A stretch of 64,000 bases of DNA from an uncultured Chloroflexia bacterium (GTDB lineage: Bacteria > Chloroflexota > Chloroflexia > Thermomicrobiales > UBA6265), in assembly GCA_963724285.1 (NCBI GenBank), contig CAVRUD010000008.1, positions 6,302-70,301 on the forward strand. The letters are read 5' to 3'. This document shows, piece by piece, positions 4,955-38,274 of the stretch. The notes beneath the pieces are model-generated. The model was not told the origin of the DNA, did no database searches, and worked only from the letters and a program-made list of their open reading frames with translations. Made by a program: the position numbers and the translations under genes. Each line of letters opens with the position of its first letter. Positions within the stretch are counted from its first letter, which is position 1.

Positions 4955-5058
4955 GGATAGCCCCCCCGGCGGCCCACCGCCACCACGTGGCCGAGCGTGT
5001 TCCGTCTGCCACCGCCCCGGCCGCCAAGCGCGGGAGGCTGTCCTCGCGACCGCCCGGA

Positions 5059-6429
5059 TCAGCCGCCCTGGCGTCCTGCCGCGTCTCCCGGCTCGGGCTC
5101 GGTCACGCCATCCAAAGGCACGAGCGGGCCGAGGCGGCTCCAACCTTCGGCGATCTTACCGCCCGCGATGCGATACGTCTCGACCCCCTCGGCGGTCATC
5201 GCCTGGCCGGTCGGGTCCACGCCGACGAACGCGCCCGCCTGGGTCCCCCGCAGCCGCACACGGGCCACGACCTTGTCGCCCTCGGCGATCAGCTCCTCGA
5301 CCGCCAGGCGGCCGTCGGGGAAGGCGGCCCGAAACAGGCCGACCGCCTGCTTCATCCCGACCAGACCAGGCATCTGCCCGGGCAAGGGATCGTGATCGAC
5401 GAAGTCGGACGCCACCACCTCATCGAGGGGATCGACGCCGCCGGTCTCGAACGCATCGTACAACCGGCGTACGAGCGCCTTGTTGGCGTCGAGGTCCCGC
5501 CGCACGAGCAGATCCGCGCCGACCCACGCCGCGACCAACACCAGCGTCGCGACCAGCCCCAACCGCGTCAGGCTGTCGCTGAAGGCGCGTTCGGCCGGCG
5601 CCACCGCCACCGCGCGCGGGATGGCAACGCTGACGTAGGCGCTCCCGGCCGCCCCACCCGCGAGCGGCTCGAACGCGTACAGATAGGATCGACCGTCTTC
5701 GCCGGGAGCCTCGGTCGTGCCCGCCCCCCGGCTCAGGATCGTCTCGACCACCGGGGTCCCGGCCAGCGAGCGCCCGATCCAGCTCTCCTCGGCCGGGTCA
5801 GGGTGGTGGACCAGCACCGTGCCGGTCCGGTCGACCACGGTCAGGACCGAACCCTCCGGCAGCCCCGCCTCGGCCGCGAACTCATTGAGCCAGATCAGGT
5901 CCAGCGCGGCGTAGACGACCGCCAGGATCTGCCCCGCCTCGTCGACGACGGGGTAGCCGCAGTTGAGGGTGGGCAGGCCGGTGACGCGCCCGATCTGGTA
6001 TTCGCCGACCGCGAAGTCGCCGGTCTCGATGGCGCGCCGAAAGTAGACCCGATCGGCGAGGTTGGTCGGCCCCGGAGGGGGCACGGCGCTGCAGGCGAGG
6101 TCACCGTCCAGCTCGATCACCCCGAGGTTGGCGTAGAGCGGGACCTCGCCCCGCAGGGTCGAGAGGAGCGCGCTGCACACCTCCGGATCGCCTCCCCGCA
6201 CCTCGGGCAAGACTGCCAGCGCGACCAGGAGTTGGCGCGTGCTGTCGAGCAGCCGTTTCTGGTCGGCCGCGGCGAGCATGGCGAAGCGGCGGGCGTCCTC
6301 CTGGGCGTCCTCCACCGCTTGATCTCGCTGGCCATCGGCCACGTAGACAAGCAACCCCAGGGCCGGGAGGAGGGCGATCAGGACCAGGAGCATGAAGCGA
6401 ACCCGCAAGCTCCCCAGTAAGGACATCAC
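5059..6429 (-). CDS. membrane sensor: N-terminal TM, Cache/PDC-like periplasmic domain, second TM, C-terminal SnoaL-like 'ester cyclase' domain
   Basis: 'NLADRVYFRRAIETGDFAVGEY...PVVDEAGQILAVVYAALDL' is Cache-like. TM 'LGLVATLVLVAAWVGADLLV'. C-terminus 'NKALVRRLYDAFETG...VDHDPLPGQ...GKIAEGW' is SnoaL/ester-cyclase-like. Confidence 0.75.
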   Translation of the reverse strand: MMSLLGSLRVRFMLLVLIALLPALGLLVYVADGQRDQAVEDAQEDARRFAMLAAADQKRLLDSTRQLLVALAVLPEVRGGDPEVCSALLSTLRGEVPLYANLGVIELDGDLACSAVPPPGPTNLADRVYFRRAIETGDFAVGEYQIGRVTGLPTLNCGYPVVDEAGQILAVVYAALDLIWLNEFAAEAGLPEGSVLTVVDRTGTVLVHHPDPAEESWIGRSLAGTPVVETILSRGAGTTEAPGEDGRSYLYAFEPLAGGAAGSAYVSVAIPRAVAVAPAERAFSDSLTRLGLVATLVLVAAWVGADLLVRRDLDANKALVRRLYDAFETGGVDPLDEVVASDFVDHDPLPGQMPGLVGMKQAVGLFRAAFPDGRLAVEELIAEGDKVVARVRLRGTQAGAFVGVDPTGQAMTAEGVETYRIAGGKIAEGWSRLGPLVPLDGVTEPEPGDAAGRQGG

Positions 6430-13910: not shown

Positions 13911-14975
13911 CGCCCGGGGCTAAAACGCCTGGAAGGCCTGGAGGGCGACGGTTCCGAGGGAGTACGGTGGGGGTGCTTATCCCCCCGCTGTGCGCCAGGA
14001 GCCCCGCCCGATGCTCCTCCCGGAGGCCGTCGTGATCGCCGTGTATGCCATGGTCGACGAGTTCCAAGCCACCCACCTGCCGCCGGTGCGGCGGCGGGGT
14101 GGCCAGCAACCGGCCCTGACGCGCAGCGAGGTCCTGACGCTGGCCCTGCTCGGCCAACTCGGCTGCTTCGCCAGCGAGCGCGCCTTGTATCGCGTCGTGG
14201 ACACGGAATGGCGCCACCGCTTCCCCCGCCTGCCCGCGCGGGTGCAGCTGCATGCCACCATCCGCGCCCAGGCCGCGGCCCTGGTCGCCTTCGGCCGGTG
14301 CCGCGCCCGCCCCCTCGACGCCCTCACCGCCGAGGACGAGGTCCTCGCCTGCCCGGCGGTGCCGCTGCGCACCGCCAACCGGCGCGGGGTCGGCGCTATG
14401 CCGGCGGTGGTGGCCCGGGGCACGGCGGGGCGCCTCGGCTGGTTCGTCGGGGTGCGGCGGCTGGTCGCCACGACCCCGACGGGGGCGATCACCGGGCTGG
14501 GGGATCGCCCCGGGCACCGAGCGGGAGCGCGTCCCTGGCCGACGCCCTCCTGGCCGAACGGGCGGCCCTGGAGCCGGCCCTGCCCAGCGTCGGCCGCCCG
14601 GCCAGCGGGGTCGACCTGGCCGATTCCGGCTTCGCGGGGCGGGCGGCGCGGGCACGCCGGCTGGCGCTGGACGCCGACGTGCTCGCCCCGCCCCAGCGCG
14701 GCAGCGCCGAGCGCTGGGCCAAACCGGTCCGCGCCCAGCACCGCACCAAGCGCCGGATCGTGGAGACCGTCGTCGCACGGCTGCACGGGGCGTTCCGGCT
14801 GGAGCGGGACCGGCCGCGCTCCCTGGGCGGCCTCCTGGCGCGGATCGCGGCCACGATCGCGCGCTCCAACGCCCCGATCCGCCGCAACCGCGGCGCGGGT
14901 CGCCCCGGCCCCACCCTGGCGGGGGTGGTCAGGTGAGCCCATTCCCATGCCTTCCAGGCGTTTTAGCCCCCGGGC
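13911..14975 (+). mobile_element. IS982-like insertion sequence (~1.06 kb) with 22-bp perfect terminal inverted repeats
   Basis: IRs 'ggggctaaaacgcctggaaggc' (13916-13937) and its reverse complement (14949-14970) bracket a single DDE transposase reading frame. Confidence 0.7.
13990..14936 (+). pseudogene. DDE transposase (IS982/IS4-like), broken by two frameshifts near 14495 and 14530
   Basis: 'LLPEAVVIAVYAMVDEF...ALTRSEVLTLALLGQL' (frame 1), then 'WGIAPGTERERV' (frame 2), then 'LADALLAERA...VDLADSGFAG...KRRIVETVVARLHGAFRLERDRPRSLGGLLARIAA' (frame 0). Confidence 0.7.
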
Positions 14976-15099
14976 TCTGCGAGCGAGCGAGATAAGCCCA
15001 CTAAAGGGGCTGAGCACGGGATTGGCGTCCCAAAGCCCGGCGTGACAGCCCCCTTCAGGGGGGTTATCCGGTTCAGCCCGGGGTCTTCAGCCCCGGGCG
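14976..15099. repeat. partial REP/MITE-like element adjoining the IS
   Basis: 'gataagcccactaaaggggctg', 'cagcccccttcaggggggttatc', 'agcccggggtcttcagccccgggcg'. These are the same modules as at 12229, 57643 and 63014. Confidence 0.8.
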
Positions 15100-17364: not shown

Positions 17365-19947
17365 TTACACGCAGCGGGCGACGTCCCAGAGTAACACCGT
17401 CGTGTCACTGAAGGCGGCCAGCATCGCGCCGTCCGGACTGAATACCACCTCCTGCACTGTATCCTCGAGGCCGGCGAGGGGCTCGCCGAGCGACTGGCCG
17501 GTCGCGGCGTCCCAGAGGACGACCGTCCCGTCGCCGTAGCCCGAGGCCAGCACGCGCCCGTCCGGGCTGAAGGCCGCCACGGGGAGCCCCTGACGAACCA
17601 AGAGGGGCTCGCCGAGGGGCTCGCCGGTGGCCACGTCCCAGAGGATGACCCTCCCGTCCGAGGAGGCCGAGGCCAGCGTGGCCCCGTCCGGGCTGAAGAT
17701 CAGAGCGGACACGCTGTCCGCAGGGTCGGCGGACGGCTCGTTGACCGGCTCGCCGGTGGCCACGTCCCAGAGGACGACCGTCCCGTCGGAGTAGCCCGAG
17801 GCCAGTGTCGCCCCGTCTGGGCTGAATACCACGGAGTACACCGCATCGGTGTGGCCGGCGAGCGGATCGCCCCGCTGCTGGCCCGTGGCCACGTCCCAGA
17901 GGACGACCGTCCCGTCGGAGTAGCCCGAGGCCAGCGTCGCCCCGTCCGGGCTGAATACCACCTGCAGCACCGCATCCCAACGACCGGCGAGGGGCTCGCC
18001 GAGCGGCTCGCCGGCGGCCACGTCCCAGAGGACGACCGTCCCGTCGTAGCCGCCCGAGGCCAGCACGCGCCCGTCCGGGCTGAAGGCTACGGTGTTCGCC
18101 CGGCTCTTCGCATAGCCGGTCGCCCGATCGCCAACACCGTGTCCGTCCAGGAACGGACGGTCCCATTGCTCCTGGCTGGCGACGTCCCAAAGGATGACCC
18201 CGGTGTTGGCGCCCGCGGCCAACGTCGCGCCGTCTGGGCTGAAGGCTACCTCTGCGAAGATGTCTTCGAAGCCCCCGTAGTCCGCGGTGTCGACCAGTAC
18301 CGCGGTTGGTGTCGACGAACCGCACCCGGTGGGTTCTTGCGTGGCCGACGTCGTGTTTGCCGAATCGGTGTCGCCTGAGGCGCCGGGCACTTCGGCCGCT
18401 TCGCTGACGAAGGTCGCCTCGCCGGTCCCCTCCGGCGCGACGGTGACGTCCTGCTCCCGCACCTCCGCCAGCTCGTGCCCCTCGGGAACGCTCTCCTGCC
18501 GGACGACGTAGTCGCCGGCCGGGACGTCGAAGAGGGTCATGTCCCCATCGCCGTTCGTGTCGCAGGCGCGCTCGTCGTAGCCGATGACGGCGTAGCAGGC
18601 GCCGGGGACCGGGTTCCCGTCCGGGTCCGTCGTGGAGGCGACCAGCGCGCCGGGCTCGGGCGCGTTCTCGACGTCGACGCGGGTGGTCTCGCCCGGCTCG
18701 ACGGCGATCGGCTGGTCCGGCCCGGCCTGGTGCCCGTCGGGCGCCTCGGTCTCGACGACGGCGTACTCGCCGGCCAGGACGCGGGTGAAGCGGACCTGAC
18801 CGTCGTCGTCGTCCGCGTCGGCGTCGTCGTCGTCGCAGATCGGCCCGTAGGCGGTCGGACCATCGAGGGCGAAGCACGCCCCGGAGAGCAGCTCGCCCGC
18901 CGGGTCGCGCGTGTTGACCAGGACGCTGCCGGTGGGCGGTTCGGGCGTCTCGGTGGGGGGCGGGGCCGTCGTCGCGGTCGCGGTGGGCGTCTCGGTCGGC
19001 GGCACGGGGGTCTCGGTCGGCGGCACTGTCGCGGTTGGCGTTGCGGTGGGCGGCACGGGCGTCTCGGTGGGCGGGACGGGCGTCGAAAGATCCTCGACCT
19101 CCCCCGGAACCACACCGTTCAGGAAGGGCCGGATCAGGTTGGCAGGGATCAGCCTCGCCCATTGACCGCCAAGGTCGCCCTGCTCGACGCTTCTCACGAT
19201 CCCGACGAGCCCGCCGCCCTCGGCGACCGCCGGCCCCCCGCTGCTGCCGAAGTCGGCCCCGATTCTGACCTGGATCTCTCCAATCTGGGAGCCGTCCTCC
19301 CGACGCGGAAAGCTGGTCACCCCGCCCTCGTCGTTCACCACCGGCCTCGCAAGCAGCTCCTCGGCGTCGTCGGTGCCAAGCCCGGGGAAGCCACTAATCC
19401 GTATCGCGTCGAACTGCCGGACGTCGTCCGAATCGCCGAGTTGGAGGTAATCCAACGTCGGCGTTTCGTCCAAGCGACCGCCGCTGGGACCTCCGACGAC
19501 GCGCAGCAGCGCGACGTCAAGGCGGCAATCCGACCCGTTTGCGACCTCCACGGCCGTGTAGAGCCGGATCGGTGGATCGAAGAGGCTGATCGGGACGTAC
19601 ACGAGGAATCCTGGCTGGATCGTGTAGGTGACAGTCCGGCCTTCGTCGGCAAGAAGTTCGTTCTGCTCGGTGTCGAGCCTGCTTCTCAGGTCGCCCAGGT
19701 CGAGGACGTGGCAGTTGGTCAGGATCAGCCCGCCGGAGCTGACCACGGCGCCGCTGCCCAACGGCACGGTCTCATGGGCGCGCTGAACCCCGTTCTCCTC
19801 GACGTAGACCTGGGCCGCGAGGAGGACCGTTGCCTTCCAGGCGTCGCCGAACGTCACGACCTCCTGCCCCAGAGCCGGTCTCGCGAGGGACCAAGCGAGG
19901 ACGACGAAGACAAGCACCATTCGTCTGCCAAGGTACGTCAACGGCAT
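17365..19947 (-). CDS. secreted multidomain protein: signal peptide, trypsin-like serine protease, Pro/Thr linker, two SpaA/Cna-B-like (prealbumin-fold) domains, WD40 beta-propeller
   Basis: Signal 'VLVFVVLAWSLARPALG'. Triad motifs 'TNCHV', 'DVALL', 'GSSGGP'. 'PPTETPVPPTATPTA...'. 'FTRVLAGEYAVVETEAPDGH' and 'FDVPAGDYVVRQESVPEGH'. Seven or more 'FSPDG..LASG..DGTVVLWDV' repeats. Confidence 0.85.
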   Translation of the reverse strand: MPLTYLGRRMVLVFVVLAWSLARPALGQEVVTFGDAWKATVLLAAQVYVEENGVQRAHETVPLGSGAVVSSGGLILTNCHVLDLGDLRSRLDTEQNELLADEGRTVTYTIQPGFLVYVPISLFDPPIRLYTAVEVANGSDCRLDVALLRVVGGPSGGRLDETPTLDYLQLGDSDDVRQFDAIRISGFPGLGTDDAEELLARPVVNDEGGVTSFPRREDGSQIGEIQVRIGADFGSSGGPAVAEGGGLVGIVRSVEQGDLGGQWARLIPANLIRPFLNGVVPGEVEDLSTPVPPTETPVPPTATPTATVPPTETPVPPTETPTATATTAPPPTETPEPPTGSVLVNTRDPAGELLSGACFALDGPTAYGPICDDDDADADDDDGQVRFTRVLAGEYAVVETEAPDGHQAGPDQPIAVEPGETTRVDVENAPEPGALVASTTDPDGNPVPGACYAVIGYDERACDTNGDGDMTLFDVPAGDYVVRQESVPEGHELAEVREQDVTVAPEGTGEATFVSEAAEVPGASGDTDSANTTSATQEPTGCGSSTPTAVLVDTADYGGFEDIFAEVAFSPDGATLAAGANTGVILWDVASQEQWDRPFLDGHGVGDRATGYAKSRANTVAFSPDGRVLASGGYDGTVVLWDVAAGEPLGEPLAGRWDAVLQVVFSPDGATLASGYSDGTVVLWDVATGQQRGDPLAGHTDAVYSVVFSPDGATLASGYSDGTVVLWDVATGEPVNEPSADPADSVSALIFSPDGATLASASSDGRVILWDVATGEPLGEPLLVRQGLPVAAFSPDGRVLASGYGDGTVVLWDAATGQSLGEPLAGLEDTVQEVVFSPDGAMLAAFSDTTVLLWDVARCV

Positions 19948-19956
19948 GGTCGCCCC

Positions 19957-22162
19957 CTACTCGTCGACGACCTCGAAGCGGAGGAACTCCCCGCCGACCT
20001 GGGCGTAGATGACGGTTACGTTCGGGAATGGCTCGTCCGCCGCGAAAAACACCGGGAATCCGTCGATGCATCGTGAATCGGACAAGCGAGCCGGCGTCGA
20101 CCTCGGTGTCGGATCCCGAAAACCGCAGCTGGATCGGCGTCCCGTTAGGGAGCGTGGTAGAGAGATCCTCCGGGAGCGAGTCGGGTAGCCCGGCGTCGTC
20201 GAGGAGGACATAGCGCTGCAAACCGTCCGGACTTTCAATGAACAGCTCCGGGAAGGGCTGTTCGTCCGTGTTGGTATAGACTGGCTCTCCCTCTCCGGTG
20301 GTCCCGACCTCGAGCAAGTCGGCCGGCGTTCGCTCCGTCTCGATGCCGGCGAACGCGTAGTTTGCTTCCCCCGCCGTCAACTGCCCGAGATCCAAGGACT
20401 CGGCATCGCACGGGGCGATGCCAATTTGGTTATCCGGGCTCTCTGAGGCGGGTGAGGTCACGTCGGCCTCCCCGGTCGTGCTGGGCGTGGCGAATATGCT
20501 GAGGTCGGTCAGGAGTTGGGACAGCGCGGCATCCAGTTCCTCGGCGTTCTGGGCGCCGAGGAGCACGCCGCCGCCGTTGTCGGCGATGCACTGCAGGATC
20601 GCCAGCTCGTCCTGGGCCAGGCCCAGTCCAACGACGTTTACCTGGACGCCCTTGTCGCCCTCGAAGAGCTCGGTGGCAGCGTCGCACGGAGCCTGAACAT
20701 CGTCGTCGCAGGTCTCGAGGCCGTCCGTCACGAGGATGATCGCGTTGGTGATGTCTTCGGCGTCGTCCGGAAAGTCCTCGACCGCGCGCTCCAGAGAGAG
20801 CGCCATGGGTGTCCAACCGACCGGCTCGTAGGAATCAACCTGACTCTGGAGCGCCTCCTTGTCGACGCCTTCGATCGGCACGAGGAGCTCGCTGCTCTGG
20901 CAGCTCTCGGCGCGGCCGGCTGCGGTGTTGTCCGCTTCGTGGCCGAAGACCCGGAAGCCGACGTTGATGTTCGGCTGGTCGTCTGGGATCTGCGTGATGA
21001 CATCCGTCAGGACGCGCTTGGCGGCGTCGATCCTCGGCTCGCCCGTGGTCGTTTCTTCGGCCATCGAGCCAGAGGAATCGAGGATCAGCTCGACGTTGAC
21101 GGTATCCGTAGCGATCGCCTCCGGCTGCGGTGTCTCGGTGGGCGGTTCGGGCGCCTCGGTGGGCGGGGCGGGGGTATCGGTCGGCGGCGGTTCGGGCGTC
21201 TCGGTCGGTGGAGGGGCCGTCGTCGCGGTCGCGGTTGGCGTTGCGGCGGGCGGGGCGGGCGTCTCGGTGGGCGGGGTTGCGAACGGAGTGGCGTACAGGT
21301 CGGGCCGGACCCGCTCAAGCAGCGGGCGTGCCGAGTCGATGGGGATGACCTTCGTCCAGCGACTCCCGAGATCCCCCTCCTCGACGCCCCGGACGACGCC
21401 CACTAGCTCGCCCGAGGCGTCCACCGCCGGGCCGCCGCTGCTGCCATGGTCGGACTGGGCATCCACCCACATGACGCCGCCTTCGAACCGGTTGACTTCT
21501 CCCTCGTCGAACGTGACGGAGCGACCGAACGCGGTCGCGGTTCCGACGTCCGGGTAGCCATAGACGCGGAGGTCGTCGAGGGGGTTGACCGTCTCCGAAT
21601 CCCCGATCGGTAGGAAGGCCATGTCGGGCGCTGCGTTTAGACGACCGCCGAACGGGCCGCCCGTCACCTCGAGCACCGCCAGGTCCTGTGCGCAGTCGCG
21701 GTCAAGGACGGTCGCCGTGTACCGCAGTTGCGGGGGATCCTCGAAACTGACCGGCACGTAGACCTGGAAGATCGCGTCCGGCTCGAAGACCACCTCCCGG
21801 CCCTCTAACTCCTTGAGGCCGCCGGCTTCGGTCGCGAGTTCGCTCTCTAGTTCCGTCAGGTCGACGACGTGGCAGTTAGTCAAGATCAGGCCGTCGGCGG
21901 TGATCACCGCGCCGCTACCCAGCGGCTCCTGCCGGCCCGGCGCCGGCTGCCCGGACTCGGTGACGGAGATGTTGACCGCGAGCAGCACTGTCGCCGTCCA
22001 GGCGCTGTCGACCGTTGCCGCCTCCTGGCCGCCAACAGGGCGGCCGGCCGGGCTGGCGAGGAGCAGCGTAATCATGGGGATCAACAGCGCCATGGCGCCC
22101 AGTTGCAGAAGGCGGGGTTTCGGTCTTTTCAGCGATAAGAACGACGTGTCGCCTGCAGCCAT
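19957..22162 (-). pseudogene. secreted trypsin-like protease, Pro/Thr linker, vWA domain and C-terminal domain; one frameshift near 20080 (or an assembly indel)
   Basis: 'TNCHV', 'DLAVL', 'GSSGGP'. vWA MIDAS 'DSSGSM...GWTPMA...LVTDGLETC'. Frame A turns into Arg-rich junk after 'EVDAGSLV'. Frame B gives 'CIDGFPVFFAADEPFPNVTVIYAQVGGEFLRFEVVDE*', stopping 7 nt before the next gene's ATG. Confidence 0.8.
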
Positions 22163-23109
22163 CACTCCCCCTCGCACTGCGCCCGGGGCACGCCAGCGTC
22201 CGGGACCGCGGGCGACGGCGTCGCCGACGAGGCCGAGAGCCACAACGGTCGCCCCTCCGGCAGTGCGCCGGCCACCAAGACCACCGTGGCCGGTTCCGCC
22301 GCTTGGACCGAGTGGGTTTCGAAGGCCGGGAACAGCCGGCAGCTTCCCTCGCGCAACTCGGCGAGTTCGTCAACCCGGAGCCGCCCGTGCAGCACCGACA
22401 CGGCCACCGGTCCGGGAGAACGGTAGTGCCCCGCGTCGGCCTGGACGTCTGTCCACGACGCGCACGCGAAGAAAAGGCTGAGGCCGGTCGTCGGGAGTGT
22501 ACCGACCTGACCGCTCACGTACACGCGACTATCGAGGCTGCCCTCCGGTGCCGCCGATTCCATCAGGTTGACGTCCGCCTGCCCGCCGGAGTAACCGACC
22601 TCGCTTTCGCGGTCCGACGGCACCAATGCGAGTCGGAGCAGGACCAGCGGCTCCGCCGCCGGGTTCTGGTACCGGTAGAACTGACCGGTCTGCACGAACG
22701 GCGACCCACCGGCGGCGTGCTCGGACGGCTCCCCGTTGACCGAGAACCGGACCGCCCCGCTGACGACGTGGTAGAGCAAAGGGCCGGCGGCGAGCAGTTG
22801 CTCAGTCACGGCTCCAGGCGTCAAGCGGACGTGGCGGACGGTCAGGACCAGGGGCGACCCTTGGCGCGGCAAGTCGTCGACGGCGCCGGAGCCGAGGAGC
22901 ACGACGTCGCTCCCGTCCGGTTTGCCCGTGACCAAGTCTGGTTCCTTTGCCCCCGCGGCTGGTGCGCTCGACGGCGGCGCGGCGGGCGCGCATGCGCCGA
23001 GGAGATCGGTGGGCAGCAAGCCGCTGGCCTCTTCCTGACCCAGCGCGAACGCCCCGTTGAGCAGCGCCAAAGCGAACGAAAGGACGACGGCTCGTGCCGG
23101 CATGATCAT
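22162..23109 (-). CDS. secreted hypothetical protein with two cupin-like halves
   Basis: Signal 'AVVLSFALALLNGAFALG'. 'LTVRHVRLTPGAV...YHVVSGAVRFSVNG' and 'VAVSVLHGRLRV'. Its TGA overlaps the downstream ATG by 1 nt (22162). Confidence 0.6.
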   Translation of the reverse strand: MIMPARAVVLSFALALLNGAFALGQEEASGLLPTDLLGACAPAAPPSSAPAAGAKEPDLVTGKPDGSDVVLLGSGAVDDLPRQGSPLVLTVRHVRLTPGAVTEQLLAAGPLLYHVVSGAVRFSVNGEPSEHAAGGSPFVQTGQFYRYQNPAAEPLVLLRLALVPSDRESEVGYSGGQADVNLMESAAPEGSLDSRVYVSGQVGTLPTTGLSLFFACASWTDVQADAGHYRSPGPVAVSVLHGRLRVDELAELREGSCRLFPAFETHSVQAAEPATVVLVAGALPEGRPLWLSASSATPSPAVPDAGVPRAQCEGE

Positions 23110-23154
23110 CCTCCCCGGTGGCGTCCCACCCTCGTCGGATTGCGTCCCCCGGGG

Positions 23155-23790
23155 CTACCGGTCGACGGCGGTCGCCGACGGTGCCGGTATCCCGAGGCAG
23201 GCCGGGTTGCCCGGGTCGTCGGGGTCGAACGGGGCGGTGTCGGCGAGGTCGAGCACGTGGGTGCCTTCCAGCCCCGCCGCGTCTGCCTCGTCGCCCCCTC
23301 GGTCGGGGACAGCCACCACCCGGACGATCACGCACTCCGGGTATTCCATCGGCGCCTCGGTGGATACCAGCGCGGTGATGCGGTCCGACCGGGTGTCGAA
23401 GTCGATGGTTCCCCACCGGACTGGCGTATCCAGCCGGCGCCGGGTCAGCGGGTCCAGTGTCATCCACTCCAGCGCGACCGGCTGCTCGCCGTCGTCGTAG
23501 CCCTTCGCCTCCACCTCCACGGCGACGACGTTGCTGACGACCTGGTCGGCGCCGATCCGCTGTTCGACGAAGGCGGCGTCGGTGATTTGGACACTCCGTT
23601 CCAAGGCCGGCCCCAGGCCCTTCAGTTCCGGGTAGAGCAGAAAAACGACGGTCAGGAGCGTCGCGAGGGGCGTGACCAACCCCAGCCCCTCCCTGATCAC
23701 CGGCCACATCTTTGGTCCGACGGAGGGCGCGCCGTCCGCATCGGCTCCACCCTGGCGAGGAGACCCGGAACCGCCCGCGCCAGCAGCCAC
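23155..23790 (-). CDS. hypothetical single-pass membrane protein (first gene of the protease operon?)
   Basis: TM 'GLGLVTPLATLLTVVFLLY'. The likely start is 'MWPVIREG' at 23709. No recognisable domain. Confidence 0.45.
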   Translation of the reverse strand: MAAGAGGSGSPRQGGADADGAPSVGPKMWPVIREGLGLVTPLATLLTVVFLLYPELKGLGPALERSVQITDAAFVEQRIGADQVVSNVVAVEVEAKGYDDGEQPVALEWMTLDPLTRRRLDTPVRWGTIDFDTRSDRITALVSTEAPMEYPECVIVRVVAVPDRGGDEADAAGLEGTHVLDLADTAPFDPDDPGNPACLGIPAPSATAVDR

Positions 23791-24565
23791 GCGCCGATCA
23801 CCCCCTGCACGATGGCCTCACGAATAGATTTGATGCTTGTTCGTATCCTACTACAGCGCACCGTCGTCAACAGCCGTACGGGCCATTGTTTGGTGGGCAA
23901 TCGCGTTTGGCGGAATGATGTCAGCGGAGCGGGGCAGGACCGCGGGCCGGGGTGCCGCCTGCCACCCGCGTCCGGCGGTCCCACCCCGCCAAATGCGATT
24001 GCCCTCGCCATGATTGCTGGGCCGGCTCGGGACGAAGAGGCAAACCCACCTTCAACTGCAACGAACGCAACCGCGAGACCGGGCGAGGCGGGTAACGCTT
24101 CAGATAACCAGCCGCCGAGGCATCCCAACTTGGGCAGTTCCGCCATCTTCTATCGCGAGTGGACAGGAAAGGCTGGGCAGTCCGCCGTCGCGACCGGGGG
24201 TACGGTAAACGCGGTGGGCTGCCAAGCTTCTGCTCAATCGTTATTCCCGCGGGGACGCTCCAGATACCTCGGTCGCTAACGCAGACCATGAGATAGAAAA
24301 CAGCATCGAGAAGTGAAGCACGATGCTTTCTCCATCAAACATACATAGTACTTTTGGCATAGTTGACTTTTATGGCAAGAGGACTACCATCGGGGAACCA
24401 GTATCTCAATAAGGAGGGTCCACGAAGCGAGCGAACGGTCGTCCCCGCCCGCTCCTCGTTTGCATGAACGTGTTAAGGAGACTCGTTGCTTGTGCTGTTC
24501 GCGCGACGGCGAGCAGGATGATGCCCGATTGTGCCCGCATGTGAGGCAGGTAAAGGAGATACCTT

Positions 24566-25355
24566 GTGGCGAAGCGAGCGCTGTGCGCCGGGATCAACGA
24601 CTACCCGTATGAGGACAGTGATCTCAACGGCTGCGTCAACGACGCCCAGGCCTGGGCGGAGATGCTGACGCAGCACTTCGACTTTCCGATCGACGACGTC
24701 CGCGATCATCACCGACGCCGAGGCGACGAAAAAAGGAATCCTGACCGAACTGAAAGCGCTGCTCAAGGGGGCAAAGAAGGGCGACGTCCTCGTCTTTACC
24801 AACTCCTCGCACGGGTCGTATCTGCTCGACCGGAGCGGGGACGAGATGAAGTACGACCAGGTCCTCTGCCCGCACGACATCGCCGACAACGTGATCCTCG
24901 ACGACGAGCTGCGCGAGCTCTTCGCCGCGACACCGAGCGGCGTCCAGCTCGTCGCGCTCCTGGACAATTGCCATTCCGGTGGTGGAACGCGGCTGCCGAC
25001 AAAGACAAGGCGGCGCCGTTTCCTCGATCCCGAGAAACGCGGTGACCCGACGCTTCCCGACGACGCTGTTGGCTCGCCCACCACGGGCGCCGAGAACTAC
25101 CCGGAGTCGGGCATGCGGGAGATCTTGCTGAGCGGCTGCATGGCCCACGAGTCCTCCTACGACGACCTGATCGGTGGCCGCTACCACGGTGCTATGACCT
25201 ACTACGCGCTCGAGACGATCCGGAACGCCGACTATAGGCTGACCTATACGCAACTGCACAATCGACTGGGCAGAGTGCTGACCGATGAGCGCTACGACCA
25301 GCATCCCCAGTTGGAAGGAACGGACGAGAATAAGGCGCGGCAGGTCTTCGCCTGA
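24566..25355 (+). pseudogene. peptidase C14 caspase-like protease, 1-nt frameshift near 24704
   Basis: 'KRALCAGINDYPYEDSDLNGCVNDAQAWAEML' (frame of 24566). Then 'IITDAEATKKGI...GDVLVFTNSSHGS...VALLDNCHSGG' (frame of 24846), which carries the His/Cys dyad. AGGAG RBS 8 nt before the GTG. Confidence 0.8.
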
Positions 25356-25387: not shown

Positions 25388-28300
25388 TTGGATGAAGGCA
25401 TGACCCGCGATCGGGGGATCATCGACCGCCTCGAGGAGGCGGACGCGGACGAGTTAGCGGAGATCCTGCTCGGGGCCGGGCGCGCCGAGCAATCGGATCT
25501 GTCTGCTCACCTCGGCAAGGAACGCTTCCACCGGATGCGCTCCCTGGCGTTGCAGCGGCCGAGGTCACGATCGGCCGCGACTGCCGTTTGGGGGAACGTG
25601 GTCGTCCTGCACGGTTTCTTGGGCAGTTCGCTGACTGCCTACGACCGACCGGAGGGCGACGAGCAGATCTGGATCGATGTCCGGCGGATTGGGCTGGGGC
25701 AGCTCTCGCTGCTGCGGCTCGGGCCGGACGGTCGTTCGCCCTACCACCCGGGCACCGATATCCGCGCAAGCGGCATCATGAAACGCACCTACGGGGAGCA
25801 GCTCCTCGCCCTCGCGAAGAATTGGACGGTCCGCGCATTCCCGTTCGATTGGCGCAGGGACGTGGACTCGGCCGCGGACGAGTTGAACTCCCAGCTCAAT
25901 GACTGGTTCGCGGCCGGTGACCCTGTCCACCTGATCGCGCACGGCATGGGTGGGTTGGTCGCCAGGGCATTCATCCGCAAGTACCCGGCTCGGTGGCGAT
26001 CGATGTGGGACCATCCGGGCGCCGGGAAGCGGGGCGGGCGCCTCATCATGCTCGGGACGCCCAACCACGGGTCATTCGCGATCCCCCAGACGATCGTGGG
26101 GATCGAACCGATCGTCATCAAGCTCGCCGTTCTTGACCGGCGCAACGATCTCAACGGCCTGCTCACCATCATTAACTCCTTCGTCGGGATCTATCAGATG
26201 CTCCCGTCGCCGCTGGTGCTGCCGGCGATGGAACGTCTCTATCAGGCTGAGACCTACGGCAATCTCGGTGTGCCCCAGGTGCCCCAGGCGCACCTGTCCG
26301 CGGCTCTCCGTCACCACGAGCGACTCGCCGACGTTATCGAGCCAGACCGGATGATCAACGTTTTGGGGAACGATCAGCCCACCTTCTCGAACATCACCCG
26401 ATTCGAGGGTCTTAAAGACGTGGCATCGTACGGCGTCACCCCCATGGGTGATGGCCGCGTGACGCATCAGCTTGCCCAATTGACGGGCGTGAGCGCCTAC
26501 TTCGTCGACGACGACAGCGGCGACCTACCCTCGAATGGCAGGGTCATCGCCGCTCTCGACGACCTGCTCACGACCGGCAAGACAGGTCGGTTACGGCCTG
26601 GATCAACCACGATCCGTTCGCGCTGGGGTTCCCAGTTGGAGCGTGAGGCCCGCGAACGGCTCGTGCAAGAGGTGGGGACGCACCGAACGAAGCTGGGATC
26701 GCTCCTCGATTACTCCAGGGCGTGGCGCACGATCGTCGAGGATCGTCCCTCGACACGCCGAAGGGCCGGCGATCGTAGTGGTCCGGGGCTGGATGAACCG
26801 GACGACGCGTTCGCGGAGGAGCCGGAGATCGTCGAGGTGCTGACGCATGGGGTCCTCGCCTCTCGGGGCGGGCCCAAAGTCGATTTCGCGAACCCGCGAA
26901 GTACCTCTGAGCCGCCGACGATCGAGTTCCAAATCTTTGGAGGCAGCATCGACGAGCTGGACCTGGTCAATACCGGGCCCGTCGGACCCTCCGAGCGATC
27001 ACTCGAAGAGATCCGCCAGTTGGAAGCGCAAGGGGGAGTGCCAGAGTGCCCCATCGACGTGATCGCCGTGGGTCACTACGAGAGAACCCGGCCCGAGGGG
27101 GCCGAGCTCGTGCTCGACAGGGCCATCAGCGGCGTCGTTCCCGGCAGACCCGATGATCTACGCGGCCGGTCGTCGGATTCCAATTTGCTTCTGACGCTCT
27201 TCGCCGAGCGGGGCACCATCCGCGGTGAACTTGGCCAGGTTTTCCTGCTGCCCGATCCGCGACGCGCGTCGACGCGCGGAGCCGTAGCGCGCTGCAATCG
27301 TGATATCGCCGTTGTCGGACTGGGCGTCCCCGGCCGGTTCGGCGCTCCGGAGCTGAAGGTCCTTGCGCGTGAGCTCTGCTGGACACTAGGCAGGATGGGG
27401 AAGCGGCACCTGGCTACGGTCTTGATCGGGTCCGGTGTCGGGAATATCGATGCCGGCGAAGCGACTTCGGCATGGATCGCCGGGATCAAGAATGCGTTGA
27501 CCGGATCGACCATGGACGACGACCGAAAGCTGCGCCGGGTGACGTTCGTCGAACGCGACCCGGACAAGATCCTCGCCATGGCGGCCGCAATCGTGAACGA
27601 ACAGGAACAGTTGCGCACGCGAGATCGCATGAGAATATCCTTCGCGCAACCCCCCGCCGAACGGATGAAACGCATTCGCAGGTGGTGGACATCCACGAAG
27701 CAGCAGGAGGAGAAGGAACGAGATGAGCTCCTTTCAATGATCCATCCCAGCTGCCTCCGACCTGGCTGACGGTCACGGTCGGAAAGGAAGGGTATCGGTA
27801 CGGCGCCATCACCGATACCGCGTCGATTCCTGAGCGAGAAGTCCCCCTCAACGTGGCGCGGATTCACAAGGCTAACGACAACCTGGCGGCGGCGCCGGAT
27901 CTCGGCCTCCAACTGGAGCACGGGCTCTTCCTCAAGAAGCTGGCGCTACCGAGGGACCTGACCGGTCATCTTGCGACCGCGGCGCCGCTCGTCTTGATGC
28001 TTGACGCGGCAACGGCGCGGGTCCACTGGGAAATGATGGCGCAACCTGACCCGTTCGATCGTTCGGACGGATTCGACGTTCCGGACGATGACATGGTTGA
28101 CGGGGCTGGAGACGCCCACGCAGAGGAGACCATCGAGCGGTTCCTCGGGATCACGCGCGGAGTTACGCGCCAGTTGCGCACGGCGTTTGCTCCGCCTCCG
28201 GACCCACCCCCACCCCCGCGGCGGCGACTGCGGGTCCTGATCGTGGCCGATCCGGCCGAGGACGACCCGTTGGAAGGAGCCCAGGAAGAAGGAGCCGCGG

Positions 28301-30490: not shown

Positions 30491-30535
30491 GGCAGCAATC
30501 GTCTACCCATTTAAGAGGGGAACAGGGGGCACTTC

Positions 30536-32321
30536 ATGATTTCGCGTCTGCTCTCCGCCGTGGCAACGGCGGTCGACCACCGCATCGGCTGGCATCGGCT
30601 GCCGACGCCGCTCGGCCTGCTCGCGTTGATGGGCATCCGGGGTAGGCTGCGAGAACGCAATCTGGTCGACACGGCTTCGGCAACCCAACGCCAGCAACCC
30701 GAGCCCGCCCCTTGGCCCGGCCACCGAACCACGCGCGCGCCGGACGGAACGTTCAACGATCTCGGGCAGCCGCGCATGGGCGCCGCGGGCACCCGGTTTG
30801 GCCGCAACGTTCCCCTCAGAGAAACGTCCCCGGATCGCGCCCGGATGCTCCAACCCAACCCGCGTACCGTGAGCCGCGAGTTGCTGACCCGGGACGAGTT
30901 CGTCCCGGCCACGACGCTGAACGTGCTCGCCGCGTCCTGGCTCCAGTTCATGATCCGCGACTGGTTCAGCCACGGGAAGAGCCCAAAGGAGAACCCCTGG
31001 GAGATCCCGCTCGCGCCAGACGACCCCTGGCCAGAGCGGCCGATGCGGGTCATGCGGACCCGGCCCGATCCGACCCGCAGCCCCGAGGAGGACGCGGCGG
31101 GCCTGCCGCCCACCTACGTCAACGTCGAGACCCACTGGTGGGACGGGTCACAGCTCTACGGCAGCGACGCCGAGACCCAGGCCCGGGTCCGCACCGGGAG
31201 CGGCGGCACGCTGAAGATCGGCGCCGACGGGCTGATCCCGGTCGACCCGCGGAGCGAGAAACATCCGGCAGACGAGCCCGGCTTCTGGGTCGGGCATCGC
31301 GATGATGCACACCCTGTTCACCCGCGAACACAACGCCATCTGCGACCGTCTCCGCGCCGAATACCCGACCTGGACGGACGACGAACTCTTCGAGCACGCG
31401 CGCCTCGTCAATGCCGCGCTGCTGGCCAAGATCCACACCGTTGAATGGACGACGGCGATCCTCGGGCACCCTGCCCTTCAGATCGGGATGCGCGCGAACT
31501 GGTGGGGCCTGGCCGGGGAGCGCATCAACCGGCTCGTCGGGCGCCTCAGCGACAGCGAAGCGATCAGCGGCATCGTCGGCGGGCCAACCCACCACTTCGA
31601 CGTCCCGTACTCGTTGACCGAGGAATTCGTCGCGGTCTACCGGATGCATCCCCTCATCCCCGACGACTACACCTTCCGTTCGTCGGCCACGGACGATCTG
31701 CTGCAAAACCGGCAGTTTGCCGAGATCTCCGGTCGGAAGGCCCTGGAGCTTATCGGCGCCGTCCCGATGGCAGACCTCTTCTATTCCTTTGGCATCGCCC
31801 ATCCAGGCGCGGTGACGCTCCACAACTTCCCACGCGGTTTGCAGTTCCTGGAGCGGGAGGACGGCATCGTCCAGGATCTGGCGGCCGTCGACATCCTGCG
31901 CAGCCGCGAGCTCGGCGTGCCGCGCTACAACCGATTCCGCCGGCTGTTGCACCTCACGCCGATCGAAAGCTTCGACGAGTTGACCGACAACCCGCGCTGG
32001 CGGGAGGAACTGCGCCGCGTCTACGACAACGACGTCGAGCTGCTCGACCTGACGGTCGGAATGTTCGCCGAGCGAGTGCCGAAGGGGTTCGGTTTCAGTG
32101 ACACCGCCTTCCGGATCTTCGTCCTGATGGCCTCGCGCCGGCTCAACAGCGACCGCTTCTTCACGACGGATTTCACCGCCGACGTCTATACCCAGGTGGG
32201 ATTGGACTGGATCGCCAACAACGACATGTCGACCGTCTTGAGGCGGCACTACCCTGGGTTGGCCCCGGCCCTGCGCGGTGTCCGTAACGCGTTCGCGCCG
32301 TGGACACGGGTGACGGCCTAA
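30536..32321 (+). pseudogene. haem peroxidase-superfamily enzyme (cyclooxygenase / alpha-dioxygenase-like), frameshift near 31295
   Basis: 'LAASWLQFMIRDWFSHG', then 'GFWVG' | 'IAMMHTLFTREHNAICDRL' across two frames. 'TEEFVAVYRMHPLIPD', 'DLAAVDILRSRELGVPRYNRFRR'. Confidence 0.85.
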
Positions 32322-35487: not shown

Positions 35488-38274
35488 TCAAGAGGACGAG
35501 TAGGAGGCACTTGGCGCCGCCTCGTCTGCCCAGGCGAGCGCTTCGGCCAGAGCGACCTCTTCGGGGAGACCTCGACCGATCGCCCACGCCTCCGCGAAGG
35601 CCGCCTCCCCGAGTCGCTCGCGCAATTCGTTCTGAAACAGGTCGTAGTCCTCGCGTTGCTCGATCGCAACCGGCTCGCCGATGGCCTCGCGGATGGCGGT
35701 GGCCGCGGCCAACCATCGGGCCGCCGCGCCCGGATCCCCCGCCCGGCTCGCCAGCTGCCCCAGCCCTTCCAGCCCGAAGGCGACGCCAGACCGGTCCCCC
35801 AGGTCCCGGAACGCGACCAGCGCCTCCGCGAACAGACCCACGCCCCGCCCGTCCTCCCCCCGATCCCGGGCGACGCAGCCCAGGTTGTTCAACGCGACCG
35901 CCGTGTTTTCCGGGTCGCCCGCGCCGCGGAAGAGTCCCAGGGCCTCCTCGAAGCGGGCGGCGGCAAGCGGGAGATCCCGTTCGGTGAGGGCCATGCTTCC
36001 CAGCATGTTGAGGCAGACGCCCGCGCCGACCGCGTCGCCGGCGGCCCGCTTCAGTGCCAGTCCCTCCTCCACCAACTCGACCGCTCGCGCGCGGTCACCT
36101 CGTGCGTACGTCGCGTCGCCGAGGACGTTGAGGATCGATCCGACCTGCGGGCCGTCGCCCGCGGCGCGCGCCAGCAGCAACGCCTCATCGAGGACCTCCG
36201 CCGCGCCGTCGGCATCCCCGAGGAACTGGCGCACCACCCCGAACGTGTAGAGGGCCCGCGCCGTGGTCCGCTGGTCGCCGGCCTCCCGCGCCGCCGCGAC
36301 GGCCGCCTCGGCGTGCACGGCCGCGACGCGGTGGTCGCCCTGGGCGCGGGCCAGCATCGCCGCCCCCGTGCGCGCCGCCGCCACGCCACCGGCCGGTGCG
36401 CCGGTGCTGACGGCGAGCGCACGGTCGAGCCAGCGGCGACCCTCGGCGAAGTGGCCCCGGGTGTACCAGAACTGGCTGAGGTTGGTCGCGAGCCGCAGCG
36501 CCGTCTCGTCCCCGTCCCGGTCGACGGCCCAGCCGAGCGCCGCGCGGAGGTTGTCGTGGTCGGACTCCAAACGGTCGAGCCAGACGTGCAGCTCGTCGCC
36601 GTAGCGGCGCCGCGGGACGTCGCCGCCGGACAGCTCCAGGAAGAACCGGGCGTGGCGCCCCCGGATCGCCTCGCCCTCGCCGCTGGCCGCCAGCCGCTCG
36701 GCGGCGTACTCCCGGATCGTCTCCAGCATCGCGAAGCGGGGCTCGCCCTCGGTCCGCTCCTGCCGCAGCAGGCTCTGCCGGACCAGCGCCGCCAGCGCCT
36801 CGTAGGGGTCAACCTCCCCATCCCCGGCGGCCACCGCCTCGACCGCCTCGAACGAGCACCCCCCGGCGAAGACGGCCAGGCGGCGGAAGGCGACCTGCTC
36901 CGCCGGCGCCAGCAGGTCGTGGGACCAGGCGATCGCCCCCCGCAGGGTCCGCTGCCGCTCGGGCAGGTCGCGCGCCCCGCCGGTCAGCACGGGGAGGCGC
37001 TGCTCCAGGCGGCGCAGCAGCGCCTCCGGCGGGAAGAGTTTCGCTCGCGCCGCCGCCAGCTCGATCGCCAGCGGCAGCCCGTCCAGGCGCCGCGCGATCC
37101 CGGCGAGCGTTCCGGCGTTGGCCTCCGTCAACGCGACGTCCGCCCCGGCCGCCCGCGCCCGCGCCAGGAAGAGCGCCACGGCCGGCGCGGCGGCGACCTG
37201 CTCGGCCGTCCCGGCGGCGGGGGGTACCGGCAGCGGGCCGACGGCGACCTCCTCCTCGGCCCGCACCCCCAGCGGCGCCCGGCTCGTGGCGAGCACCGCC
37301 AGGTCCGGGGCGGACGCCAGCAGGCCGGCGAGCTCCCCGGCGGCGCCGAGGACCTGCTCCAGGTTGTCCAGGACCAGCAGCAGCCGGCGCGGGCGCAGGT
37401 ACGCCTGCAGCTCCTCGGCCAGGGGCCGATCGCCCCCCTCCCGCACGCCGAGCGCGGTGGCCACGGCCGGCAGCACCAGCGCCGGGTCGGTCACCGGCGC
37501 CAGGTCGACGAACACCGCGCCGTGCGGGAAGTCCCCGGCCGCCGCTCGGGCCGCCTCCAGCGCCAGGCGCGTCTTGCCCGCGCCGCCCGGGCCCGTGAGC
37601 GTCAGCAGCCGCGCGCCGCCCGCCAGGCGGCGCGCGATGTCGGCGAGCTCGGCCTCCCGGCCGAGGAGGGCGGTCGGCGGGACGGGCAGGTCGGCCCGGG
37701 CGGAGCCGGTCACATCGGCCGTCGCGTGCGGGGTCCCCCGCCCCGGGATGGCGCCGACGCGGTCCAGCGCCCGCAGCGCCGCCGGCAGCCATTCCCTCTC
37801 CGGGCGGTCGAGGACGTCGATCCACTGCGCCCCCTCCAGCCAGTAGGCCAGGGCGTCCGGGAACGCGACCGCTTCCAGGCGCAGCGGCAGGACGGGGCGG
37901 CCGAAGCGCCAGGCGAGGGCGATCTCCTGACGCACGTTGCGTGAGGCCAGCGAGGTGGCCGAGCACAGCAGCACCAGCGCGCCGCACCCCCGGATCCCGT
38001 CGACGATCTCCGGCCCGTAGCTCTGCCCGCCGGCGATGCCGGCGACGTCGATCCAGGCGGGCACCCCGGCGCCCTCCAGCGCCCGCGTCACGGCCAAGGC
38101 GTGCGGCCGGTCGGCGCTGGCGTAGCTCACGAAGACGTGGGGAGGCGGGTCGGCGCCCAAGGAGGGTTCGTCGGCTGCGATGGGGTCTGGCGGCAGCGGC
38201 TCGGACACGGCTGCGTCCTTTGGCGGCGACAGAATGCGTGCTGCCATTTTGTGGAACCCAATCGTCCCCGTCAA
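35488..38274 (-). CDS. TIR-domain / STAND (NB-ARC-like) NTPase / TPR-repeat protein, apparently intact
   Basis: TIR 'HVFVSYASADR...LLCSATSLASRNVRQEIALAW'. Walker A 'GPGGAGKTRLA', Walker B 'LLLVLDNLEQ'. Long C-terminal TPR array ('NLGCVARDRGE..', 'NMLGSMALTE..', 'NVLGDATYARGD..'). Confidence 0.9.
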   Translation of the reverse strand: MTGTIGFHKMAARILSPPKDAAVSEPLPPDPIAADEPSLGADPPPHVFVSYASADRPHALAVTRALEGAGVPAWIDVAGIAGGQSYGPEIVDGIRGCGALVLLCSATSLASRNVRQEIALAWRFGRPVLPLRLEAVAFPDALAYWLEGAQWIDVLDRPEREWLPAALRALDRVGAIPGRGTPHATADVTGSARADLPVPPTALLGREAELADIARRLAGGARLLTLTGPGGAGKTRLALEAARAAAGDFPHGAVFVDLAPVTDPALVLPAVATALGVREGGDRPLAEELQAYLRPRRLLLVLDNLEQVLGAAGELAGLLASAPDLAVLATSRAPLGVRAEEEVAVGPLPVPPAAGTAEQVAAAPAVALFLARARAAGADVALTEANAGTLAGIARRLDGLPLAIELAAARAKLFPPEALLRRLEQRLPVLTGGARDLPERQRTLRGAIAWSHDLLAPAEQVAFRRLAVFAGGCSFEAVEAVAAGDGEVDPYEALAALVRQSLLRQERTEGEPRFAMLETIREYAAERLAASGEGEAIRGRHARFFLELSGGDVPRRRYGDELHVWLDRLESDHDNLRAALGWAVDRDGDETALRLATNLSQFWYTRGHFAEGRRWLDRALAVSTGAPAGGVAAARTGAAMLARAQGDHRVAAVHAEAAVAAAREAGDQRTTARALYTFGVVRQFLGDADGAAEVLDEALLLARAAGDGPQVGSILNVLGDATYARGDRARAVELVEEGLALKRAAGDAVGAGVCLNMLGSMALTERDLPLAAARFEEALGLFRGAGDPENTAVALNNLGCVARDRGEDGRGVGLFAEALVAFRDLGDRSGVAFGLEGLGQLASRAGDPGAAARWLAAATAIREAIGEPVAIEQREDYDLFQNELRERLGEAAFAEAWAIGRGLPEEVALAEALAWADEAAPSASYSSS

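Follow-up and report, generated by a model that had tools for sequence, protein, structure and literature searches.

A predicted secreted serine protease cassette with variable C-terminal domains in Thermomicrobiales-like Chloroflexota

How might a bacterium use trypsin-like proteases that are fused to a von Willebrand factor A (vWA) domain or to a WD40 propeller, and on which side of its membrane would they act? The question is raised by four genes of an uncultured Chloroflexia bacterium, at positions 17365-23790 of a 64,000-nt stretch of contig CAVRUD010000008.1 (positions 6,302 to 70,301; assembly GCA_963724285.1). This stretch, referred to below as the window, has a GC content of about 70%, and its source is a Thermomicrobiales-like member of the Chloroflexota. 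The genes are long open reading frames (ORFs), all on the minus strand and closely packed in the order g4-g3-g2-g1; g1 and g2 encode the two proteases, and g3 and g4 two accessory proteins. On balance, we favour the reading that they form an extracytoplasmic, modular and lineage-restricted protease cassette, in which variable C-terminal domains (heads) target the catalytic domain.

Results

Two trypsin-like proteases with different heads

Domain hidden Markov models (HMMs) for Trypsin_2, VWA, SpaA and WD40 all scored above their Pfam cut-offs in the products of g1 and g2 (Table 1). Trypsin_2 was matched by both proteins, at 55.9 bits in g1 (E = 1.1e-14) and 73.4 bits in g2 (E = 4.2e-20) against a cut-off of 27.6. 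Behind the protease domain and a Pro/Thr linker, g2 continues into a vWA domain (E = 6.6e-8; 33.4 bits, cut-off 23.8), and g1 into two stretches of SpaA (E = 9.7e-15; 55 bits, cut-off 23.1) followed by WD40 repeats (PF00400, E = 5.6e-53). The metal-ion-dependent adhesion site (MIDAS) of the g2 vWA domain is complete, consisting of D362-S-S-G-S366, T451 (GWTP) and D481 (TDG). An initial annotation of the locus had described one protein as a trypsin fold with a Pro/Thr linker and a MIDAS-containing vWA domain, and the other as a trypsin fold with a Pro/Thr linker, two prealbumin-fold domains and a WD40 propeller; the Pfam matches, the MIDAS residues and the blade count bear out both descriptions.

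The catalytic domains of g1 and g2 are 46% identical. Each carries the motifs TNxHV, DxAxL and GxSGGP in this order, with the Asp of DxAxL in place, giving predicted triads of H80/D144/S236 in g1 and H98/D160/S242 in g2. The His and Ser of both proteins align to HtrA2 structures, and His, Asp and Ser are invariant in a 13-sequence alignment of the protease family, which together argue for the His-Asp-Ser trypsin fold that had been proposed for both. The DNA encoding the two linkers is more alike than the catalytic domains are, and this suggests that a protease-plus-linker unit was duplicated in tandem and that the two copies then acquired different C-termini, the heads diverging directly after the linker.

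The head of g1 is a propeller of exactly seven FSPDG-type blades with a 129-nt period (repeats of about 43 amino acids), where seven or more had been counted before. Its best matches among solved structures are the bacterial WD40 proteins 2YMU from Nostoc (E = 1.6e-134) and PkwA (E = 2.4e-85), and by its sequence it is assigned to the canonical, highly repetitive WD40 type, which is usually cytoplasmic in bacteria. The eight Cys residues of g1 fall two to a module: the protease has 79/141, the SpaA domains have 358/371 and 451/462, and 542/859 bracket the propeller, with zero Cys in the blades. Neither g1 nor g2 has an LPXTG sorting signal or a C-terminal anchor.

A standalone secreted vWA protein of about 404 amino acids (e.g. 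P0159 and P0180), widespread in Thermomicrobiales and other Chloroflexota (651 matches, P0157-P0276), shows 65-82% identity to g2 over the vWA domain. This protein has a signal peptide, a vWA domain with the same MIDAS residues and four Cys as that of g2, and, at its C-terminus, a conserved domain of about 165 amino acids; unlike g2, it lacks a protease, and its C-terminal domain differs from that of g2. In the one genomic context that was read (L051, 10001-11227) its gene stands as a single cistron between housekeeping genes. The best match reaches 82% identity and not close to 100%, so the g2 domain appears to be a diverged paralogous copy, with the standalone family as its putative donor. 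The same value led us to reject the idea that g2 is an assembly chimera with a standalone vWA gene. The remaining C-terminus of g2 (about 175 amino acids) had no relatives in protein searches or in a metagenome scan, and no mutual similarity was detected among it, g3, g4 and the C-terminal domain of the standalone vWA protein.

The heads vary on a conserved core

An exhaustive profile search with both catalytic domains returned 4990 proteins at E < 1e-3, five of them below 1e-30. Two of these five are public gene calls from the window itself (P0007 and P0008); the next relatives, at E = 1e-34 and weaker, are metagenomic, about 35% identical and carry the JGI name S1-C proteases. In genome and metagenome scans the wider family is found mainly in Chloroflexota (Anaerolineae, Dehalococcoidia and Chloroflexia), with some members in Nocardioides and others. 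Exact look-ups of g1, g3 (315-aa form), P0007 and P0008 found no contig.

Among 79 protease representatives, the head is a PQQ/BamB-like propeller in nine and a PD40 propeller in two; SH3_3 and CarboxypepD_reg occur four times each, pYEATS and the lectin-like DUF1080 three times each, and FHA twice, while the C-terminus of many others has no Pfam match. WD40, SpaA, vWA or the g2 tail was found in none of these relatives. Exported fusions of a WD40 propeller to a protease had been called unusual in the initial annotation; because protease-propeller fusions recur in the family, in PQQ and PD40 form, this holds for the canonical WD40 version only.

Tandem arrangements of a different kind were seen in a more distant subfamily. 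At five loci (L064, L079, L089, L095 and L119), two genes for secreted Trypsin_2 proteins of about 750 amino acids stand in tandem and point the same way; each protein has Pro/Thr linkers, C-terminal domains that are repeated, and a Cys-rich insertion of Ca-binding-like sequence (CRxxDTNGDGxxDxxDxC).

A g4-g3-protease cassette in the closest relatives

Five of the closest protease relatives were looked up, and DNA could be read for four of their loci (L131-L134); at all four, the gene immediately before that of the protease, on the same strand, is g3-like. At L131 this gene precedes the PQQ-propeller protease P0009 (39% identity to g3, E = 3e-40). The full order is kept at one of the four, L132, where a g4-like gene (42%, E = 2e-20) is followed by a g3-like gene (34%, E = 1e-32) and the protease P0016. 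L133 and L134 preserve the 3' ends of g3-like genes, 59 and 41 amino acids long, upstream of the protease (HMM E = 1e-8 and 4e-6). The genes that flank these cassettes differ from locus to locus. Closer still, a 1.3-kb contig (L001) shows the g4-g3-g2 order with the same TGATG overlap as the window and a g3 that is 88% identical, separated from ours by 50 synonymous and 38 non-synonymous codon changes concentrated at third positions, and a Logan contig carries an identical g4-g3-g2' arrangement.

By contrast with these near loci, tblastn and family HMMs found no g3, g4, vWA or fused WD40 at 128 loci with more distantly related proteases. Conservation thus covers g4, g3 and the protease as a unit and does not reach beyond the closest subfamily; a conserved neighbourhood, whose absence the initial annotation had named as a refutation, exists for these three genes and in this narrow scope. 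A simple synteny between the window and L132, suggested by a common luciferase-like gene, was rejected on differences in order and orientation. At L132 a regulator-type gene with guanylate-cyclase, AAA_22 and HTH_77 domains (3681-5642, minus strand) divergently flanks the cassette; no equivalent adjoins the window operon.

N-terminal segments consistent with export

Each of the four proteins has one hydrophobic segment, at its N-terminus, and no other membrane segment. In g1 the signal-like N-terminus of 27 amino acids reads MPLTYLGRRMVLVFVVLAWSLARPALG and is followed by QE. Putative cleavage sites are ALG/QE in g1, VGG/QE in g2 and ALG/QEE in g3, predicting mature proteins that start at Gln28, Gln45 and Gln23, respectively. 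The segments are organised into n, h and c regions, small residues occupy positions -3 and -1, and the Gln at +1 is conserved across the protease family. Nearly all of the 40 closest protease relatives likewise begin with a signal-peptide-like segment, ending in A-x-A/Q(L/I)D, and the mature N-terminus that follows is a conserved stretch common to g1, g2 and these relatives.

The distribution of Cys points the same way, with residues paired per module (four in the vWA domain, four in g3 and two in g4) and conserved in homologues; SpaA/Cna-B domains and Pro/Thr linkers are of a kind typical of surface proteins. We therefore infer that all four products are exported, and predict cleavage of the signal peptides and formation of disulfides.

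In the g1 segment (19947-19867), GRRMVL and a basic residue of the c-region (SLARPALG) resemble a signal for twin-arginine translocation (Tat), while the h-region is very hydrophobic, like that of Sec signals. A Tat route, if true, would permit export of a pre-folded propeller.

The accessory proteins g3 and g4

The N-terminal half of g3 matches Cupin_2 (residues 93-158, E = 8.6e-8; 32.2 bits, cut-off 27.2), and its C-terminal half gave weak matches that were exclusively to cupins; a profile search against PDB likewise gave only weak cupin matches. The two halves have no detectable similarity to each other. No cupin metal-binding His motif is present in an alignment of the four family members, and since the metal ligands are missing from all of them, g3 is probably a non-catalytic, bicupin-like protein and not an enzyme. 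An internal LPTTG in g3 was considered as a sorting signal and taken as chance, as it is neither C-terminal nor kept in L131 and L132.

For g4, which had no Pfam match, the likely start is the ATG at 23709, as called on an independent Logan contig, and the GTG at 23790 is less likely. Its two Cys (Cys126 and Cys171) are conserved in homologues.

Secreted proteases are in several cases encoded in an operon with a cognate inhibitor, a small beta-barrel-type protein, as in AprA/AprI and staphopain/staphostatin. By analogy, g3 could play such a part, being encoded beside and co-oriented with a secreted protease; it differs in being bicupin-like and unrelated in sequence, and in the presence of g4 as an additional membrane component.

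Operon junctions and the frameshift in g2

The initial annotation had described four co-directional minus-strand genes, and the ORF list and the codon-position GC agree with it: GC at third codon positions gives a strong signal that tracks the frames of all four ORFs. The TGA/ATG overlap reported at 22162 was confirmed by reading the junction directly, where the stop of g3 (TGA, 22164-22162) and the start of g2 (ATG, 22162-22160) have 1 nt in common (GAGTGATGG at 22164-22160, with GGGGGAG ahead). The gap between g2 and g1, given before as 7 nt, is in fact a spacer of 9 nt (GGGGCGACC) between the g2 stop (TAG, 19959-19957) and the g1 start (ATG, 19947-19945). Between the g4 stop (23157-23155) and the g3 ATG lie 45-51 nt, with GGAGG upstream of the ATG. 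A G-rich, Shine-Dalgarno-like sequence is found at each of the g4/g3, g3/g2 and g2/g1 junctions. This stop/start geometry is compatible with translational coupling, which we predict from it. No convincing internal terminator or promoter was found in the operon, where promoter and terminator scans did no better than shuffles.

The upstream intergenic region, which lies between g4 and a divergent caspase gene and is the presumed promoter region for both, has no coding signal and one weak sigma-70-like site, on the plus strand only; Rfam gave zero matches in it and across the whole window. Ten nucleotides downstream of g1, a transposase fragment marks the edge of the operon, which is remodelled by a mobile element.

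Table 1. Features of the protease operon and its borders (positions in the window)
Feature	Position	Strand	Description or basis
g1, 860 aa	17365..19947	-	Pfam domains and blade count
g1, N-terminal parts			Signal peptide aa 1-27 (ALG/QE); S1 protease aa 28-285; Pro/Thr linker aa 286-340
g1, C-terminal parts			Two SpaA/Cna-B domains aa ~341-525; 7-blade canonical WD40 propeller aa ~556-860
g1 Pro/Thr linker DNA	18935..19023	-	Repeat search; 87% identical over 89 nt to g2 linker 21186-21274
g2, ~734 aa once corrected	19957..22162	-	Pfam; start overlaps g3 stop
g2, N-terminal parts			Signal/anchor segment aa 1-44; S1 protease aa 45-290; Pro/Thr linker aa 291-352
g2, C-terminal parts			MIDAS vWA aa 353-556; orphan C-terminal domain aa 557-734
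g2 frameshift site	20068..20075	-	One extra base at ~20071; codon-GC frame switch at ~20072
g2 intact-frame reading across frameshift (predicted)	within 19950-20150		...VRFTCIDGFPVFF...
g3, 313 aa	22162..23103	-	Secreted bicupin-like protein (predicted); signal peptide ends AFALG/QEE; 4 conserved Cys
g4, 184 aa	23155..23709	-	Bitopic membrane protein (predicted); N-terminal transmembrane helix, acidic ectodomain of ~140 aa
Upstream intergenic region, presumed promoter region	23710..24565 (~850 bp)		Between g4 and divergent caspase gene, common to both
IS5-type DDE transposase C-terminal fragment, 118 aa	16999..17355	-	10 nt downstream of g1 stop; DDE_Tnp_1_2, E = 1.2e-8

The assembly carries a frameshift in g2 close to where one had been suspected (near 20080), as seen from the translations and the switch in codon GC. 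The first frame, ending in ...GSLVRFT, loses its coding signal there, and the next frame carries the signal on to the TAG at 19957; the tail read in this second frame, CIDGFPVFF...VVDE, is CIDGFPVFFAADEPFPNVTVIYAQVGGEFLRFEVVDE followed by the stop. The corrected protein has seven Cys, or eight when the junction keeps the Cys of the second frame, and the even number slightly favours ~20071 as the position of the extra base. Within 12 kb, the same kind of split affects two more genes (a caspase at ~24700 and a haem peroxidase at ~31290), and in the related assembly L132 a GH127 gene lies in four pieces. Given this pattern of split genes, the coding signal that is kept and the good placement of the stop in the second frame, we judge an assembly indel distinctly likelier than a pseudogene. 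A CGAT motif common to the three frameshifts was considered as a sign of systematic basecalling error and rejected, since CGAT/ATCG occurs about 13 times per kb anyway.

The public gene calls for this region (window 17365-22243) are affected. P0007 (796 aa) continues g2 past the frameshift to 19772, and P0008 (798 aa) begins g1 at Leu63, without the signal peptide; the short start is an annotation artefact caused by the frameshift in g2. It hides the exported nature predicted here for the WD40 protein, which database searches would class as cytoplasmic.

Neighbouring genes

Divergent from the operon, a caspase gene (Peptidase_C14, 24566-25355, plus strand) is split by a +1 frameshift at ~24700 (FPIDDVR / IITDAEATKKG). 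It is followed after 35 nt by a gene for a 793-aa protein (25388-27769, plus strand) with an LCAT/PGAP1-like alpha/beta-hydrolase N-terminus and a long C-terminus without a family match. Together, these two genes have the look of an effector unit of the conflict type. An animal-type haem peroxidase (An_peroxidase) is represented by two overlapping ORFs (30515-31444 and 31236-32321, plus strand) with a frameshift at ~31290, a third disrupted gene within 12 kb that suggests either an indel-prone assembly or local decay. Farther on, at 35488-38379 (minus strand), a 963-aa protein combines TIR, a STAND-type NTPase (nucleoside triphosphatase; AAA_16/AAA_22) and TPR, an architecture typical of defence genes. 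On the other side of the operon, between moeA and a luciferase-like gene, two putative ORFs of about 350 amino acids overlap on opposite strands (13977-15045); they are rich in Arg, Pro and Ala and have no Pfam match.

Discussion

Comparison with known systems

In fold, motif set (TNxHV/DxAxL/GxSGGP) and predicted extracytoplasmic location, g1 and g2 resemble the S1C proteases HtrA, DegP and MarP, and their best solved matches are HtrA2, HtrA1 and DegP. They differ from them in lacking a PDZ domain, in a long acidic insertion between His and Asp, in a lineage-specific Cys pair flanking these two residues, and in their heads. Scores against degP_htrA_DO were 22-36 bits where the cut-off is 416, and all other NCBIfam scores were likewise far below cut-off. 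From the missing PDZ domain and these scores, we conclude that g1 and g2 are not members of the HtrA family. In function they would resemble a secreted protease of the HtrA type that has gained targeting modules.

The closest relatives of g1 and g2 are Chloroflexota proteins that join Trypsin_2 to a propeller (PQQ in P0009, P0019 and P0026; PD40 in P0020). They agree with g1 and g2 in the signal peptide, the mature N-terminus and the design of linker plus head, and P0009 has a g3-like gene upstream. Unlike the window operon, they have a single protease gene and no tandem pair, and their propellers are of types usual outside the cytoplasm. The two SpaA domains of g1, behind a Pro/Thr linker, recall the Cna-B/SpaA adhesins and pilins of Gram-positive bacteria and would project a distal binding domain, whereas g1 joins its stalk to a protease and to a WD40 propeller and has no LPXTG.

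The initial annotation had drawn attention to conflict and 'multicellularity' systems of the Aravind type, in which trypsin, vWA and WD40 modules recur. NTP-dependent conflict systems are cytoplasmic and are built around a MoxR, STAND or GAP1 NTPase core with EAD or Trypco partners (Kaur, Burroughs, Iyer, Aravind 2020, PMC7159879). The operon has in common with them a trypsin-like peptidase, a vWA domain, WD40-type repeats and more than one peptidase. It differs in its export signals and in the absence of an NTPase core; Pfam, PADLOC and NCBIfam found no MoxR, STAND, GAP1, EAD, Trypco or toxin domain in g1-g4. PADLOC matches were of generic protease or WD40 similarity, and neither PADLOC nor NCBIfam gave a system- or family-level assignment. 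The nearest NTPase is the TIR-STAND-TPR gene, about 12 kb off with unrelated genes between, and neither it nor the caspase and LCAT-like genes accompany the cassette at the other loci. With no core NTPase, EAD or Trypco, the operon lacks the defining feature of these systems, and the proposed kinship is not supported. In a survey of WD40 proteins from prokaryotes (PMC5587647), trypsin fusions and secretion go unmentioned, and in the literature we found no description of a cassette of cupin and trypsin-like protease or of exported canonical WD40 proteases.

A proposed model and its alternatives

The reading that we favour starts from a three-gene cassette, consisting of the membrane protein g4, the secreted bicupin-like g3 and a secreted, HtrA-like serine endopeptidase with an exchangeable head. 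In the window lineage, the protease and linker would have been duplicated in tandem, with g2 gaining the vWA and orphan domains and g1 the SpaA stalk and WD40 propeller. All four products would be exported by the Sec pathway, or possibly by Tat for g1, and would fold with intradomain disulfides. The heads may then bind particular extracellular or surface protein ligands and so bring an active protease to its substrates. As obligate partners of the protease, g3 would most plausibly be a cognate inhibitor, chaperone or adaptor, and g4 a membrane tether.

Several points weigh against this reading. The AlphaFold2 model of the protease pair, built on a 2-sequence alignment, had a mean pLDDT (predicted local distance difference test) of 44.6 and was unusable, so that the alignment of the triads rests on sequence comparison with HtrA structures and on invariance in the family; the g3 model (pLDDT 27.4) was equally unusable, and the fold and disulfides of g3 are read from its sequence. 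An earlier homologue search with residues 1-300 of g1 returned four weak matches, possibly because it was swamped by the Pro/Thr linker. The conservation of the cassette extends to six loci beside the window in a narrow clade, two of which offer only fragments of 41-59 amino acids. As an inhibitor or adaptor, g3 is viewed by analogy only, and g2, with its frameshift in the assembly, is possibly a pseudogene.

This last point leads to a rather unlikely alternative, in which g2 is indeed a pseudogene and the cluster, left over in a degenerating region affected by insertion sequences (IS), has stopped working as a system. The g2 frameshift, the split caspase and haem peroxidase genes within 12 kb and the truncated transposase abutting g1 would all fit, but in g2 coding signal runs in the shifted frame to a stop 9 nt before the g1 start, g1, g3 and g4 are intact, and the fragmented GH127 gene of L132 speaks for indel-prone assemblies rather than decay. 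The proteases might instead be ordinary enzymes of nutrient scavenging or envelope housekeeping, similar to HtrA or DegP, with generic adhesion or stability modules as heads and with g3 and g4 as unrelated syntenic neighbours. Their closest solved relatives are indeed HtrA-family proteases, the JGI name is that of S1-C proteases, and the family is large (4990 proteins, as above) and common in soil Chloroflexota. We nevertheless consider this unlikely, as there is no PDZ domain and as the adjacency of g3-like genes at all four readable loci, at only ~33-39% identity and with flanking genes that differ between the loci, is more than residual synteny. A cytoplasmic location, with N-terminal segments that are not export signals and proteins that act like other bacterial trypsin/vWA/WD40 combinations, would suit the repetitive type of the g1 propeller; it seems very improbable in view of the n-h-c segments with small residues at -3/-1 and a family-wide Gln at +1, the surface-type SpaA/Cna-B domains and linkers, the Cys paired per module, and the signal peptide borne by the donor vWA family itself.

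A more speculative alternative, for which we see a slim chance, is an outward-facing conflict or recognition system, in which the heads aim the protease at surface proteins of neighbouring cells, epibionts or phages, g3 is a cognate inhibitor or immunity protein, and g4 is an anchor. Put in mechanistic terms, and held just as doubtful, this would be an NTPase-independent targeted protease, restrained or positioned by g3 and g4 and re-armed by head swap, that cleaves surface proteins of competing or attached cells with a WD40 head taken from the cytoplasmic repertoire and a decoy-like vWA copy. Variation of the heads, set against a catalytic core and partner genes that are conserved, is in keeping with such a role, as are the vWA domain copied at ~80% identity from a clade-wide protein, the caspase, LCAT-like hydrolase and TIR-STAND-TPR genes nearby, and the IS remnant adjoining the operon. 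Against it, the operon is without NTPase, EAD, Trypco or toxin domain and its PADLOC matches are generic, the caspase and LCAT-like genes are not beside the cassette at L131-L134, and the analysis yielded no sign of rapid diversification inside a head.

Significance

The extracytoplasmic protease cassette that we favour is modestly novel in two respects, the g4-g3-protease unit itself and a cytoplasmic-type WD40 propeller behind a predicted signal peptide. It would add to the biology of soil Chloroflexota a small and apparently undescribed cassette of a membrane protein, a metal-less bicupin and a secreted S1 protease. If g3 were indeed a cognate inhibitor or adaptor, it would represent a new fold among protease partners. 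For the protease family, the locus offers a clean natural case of domain shuffling at a Pro/Thr linker, in which the catalytic core stays constant and the head is exchanged.

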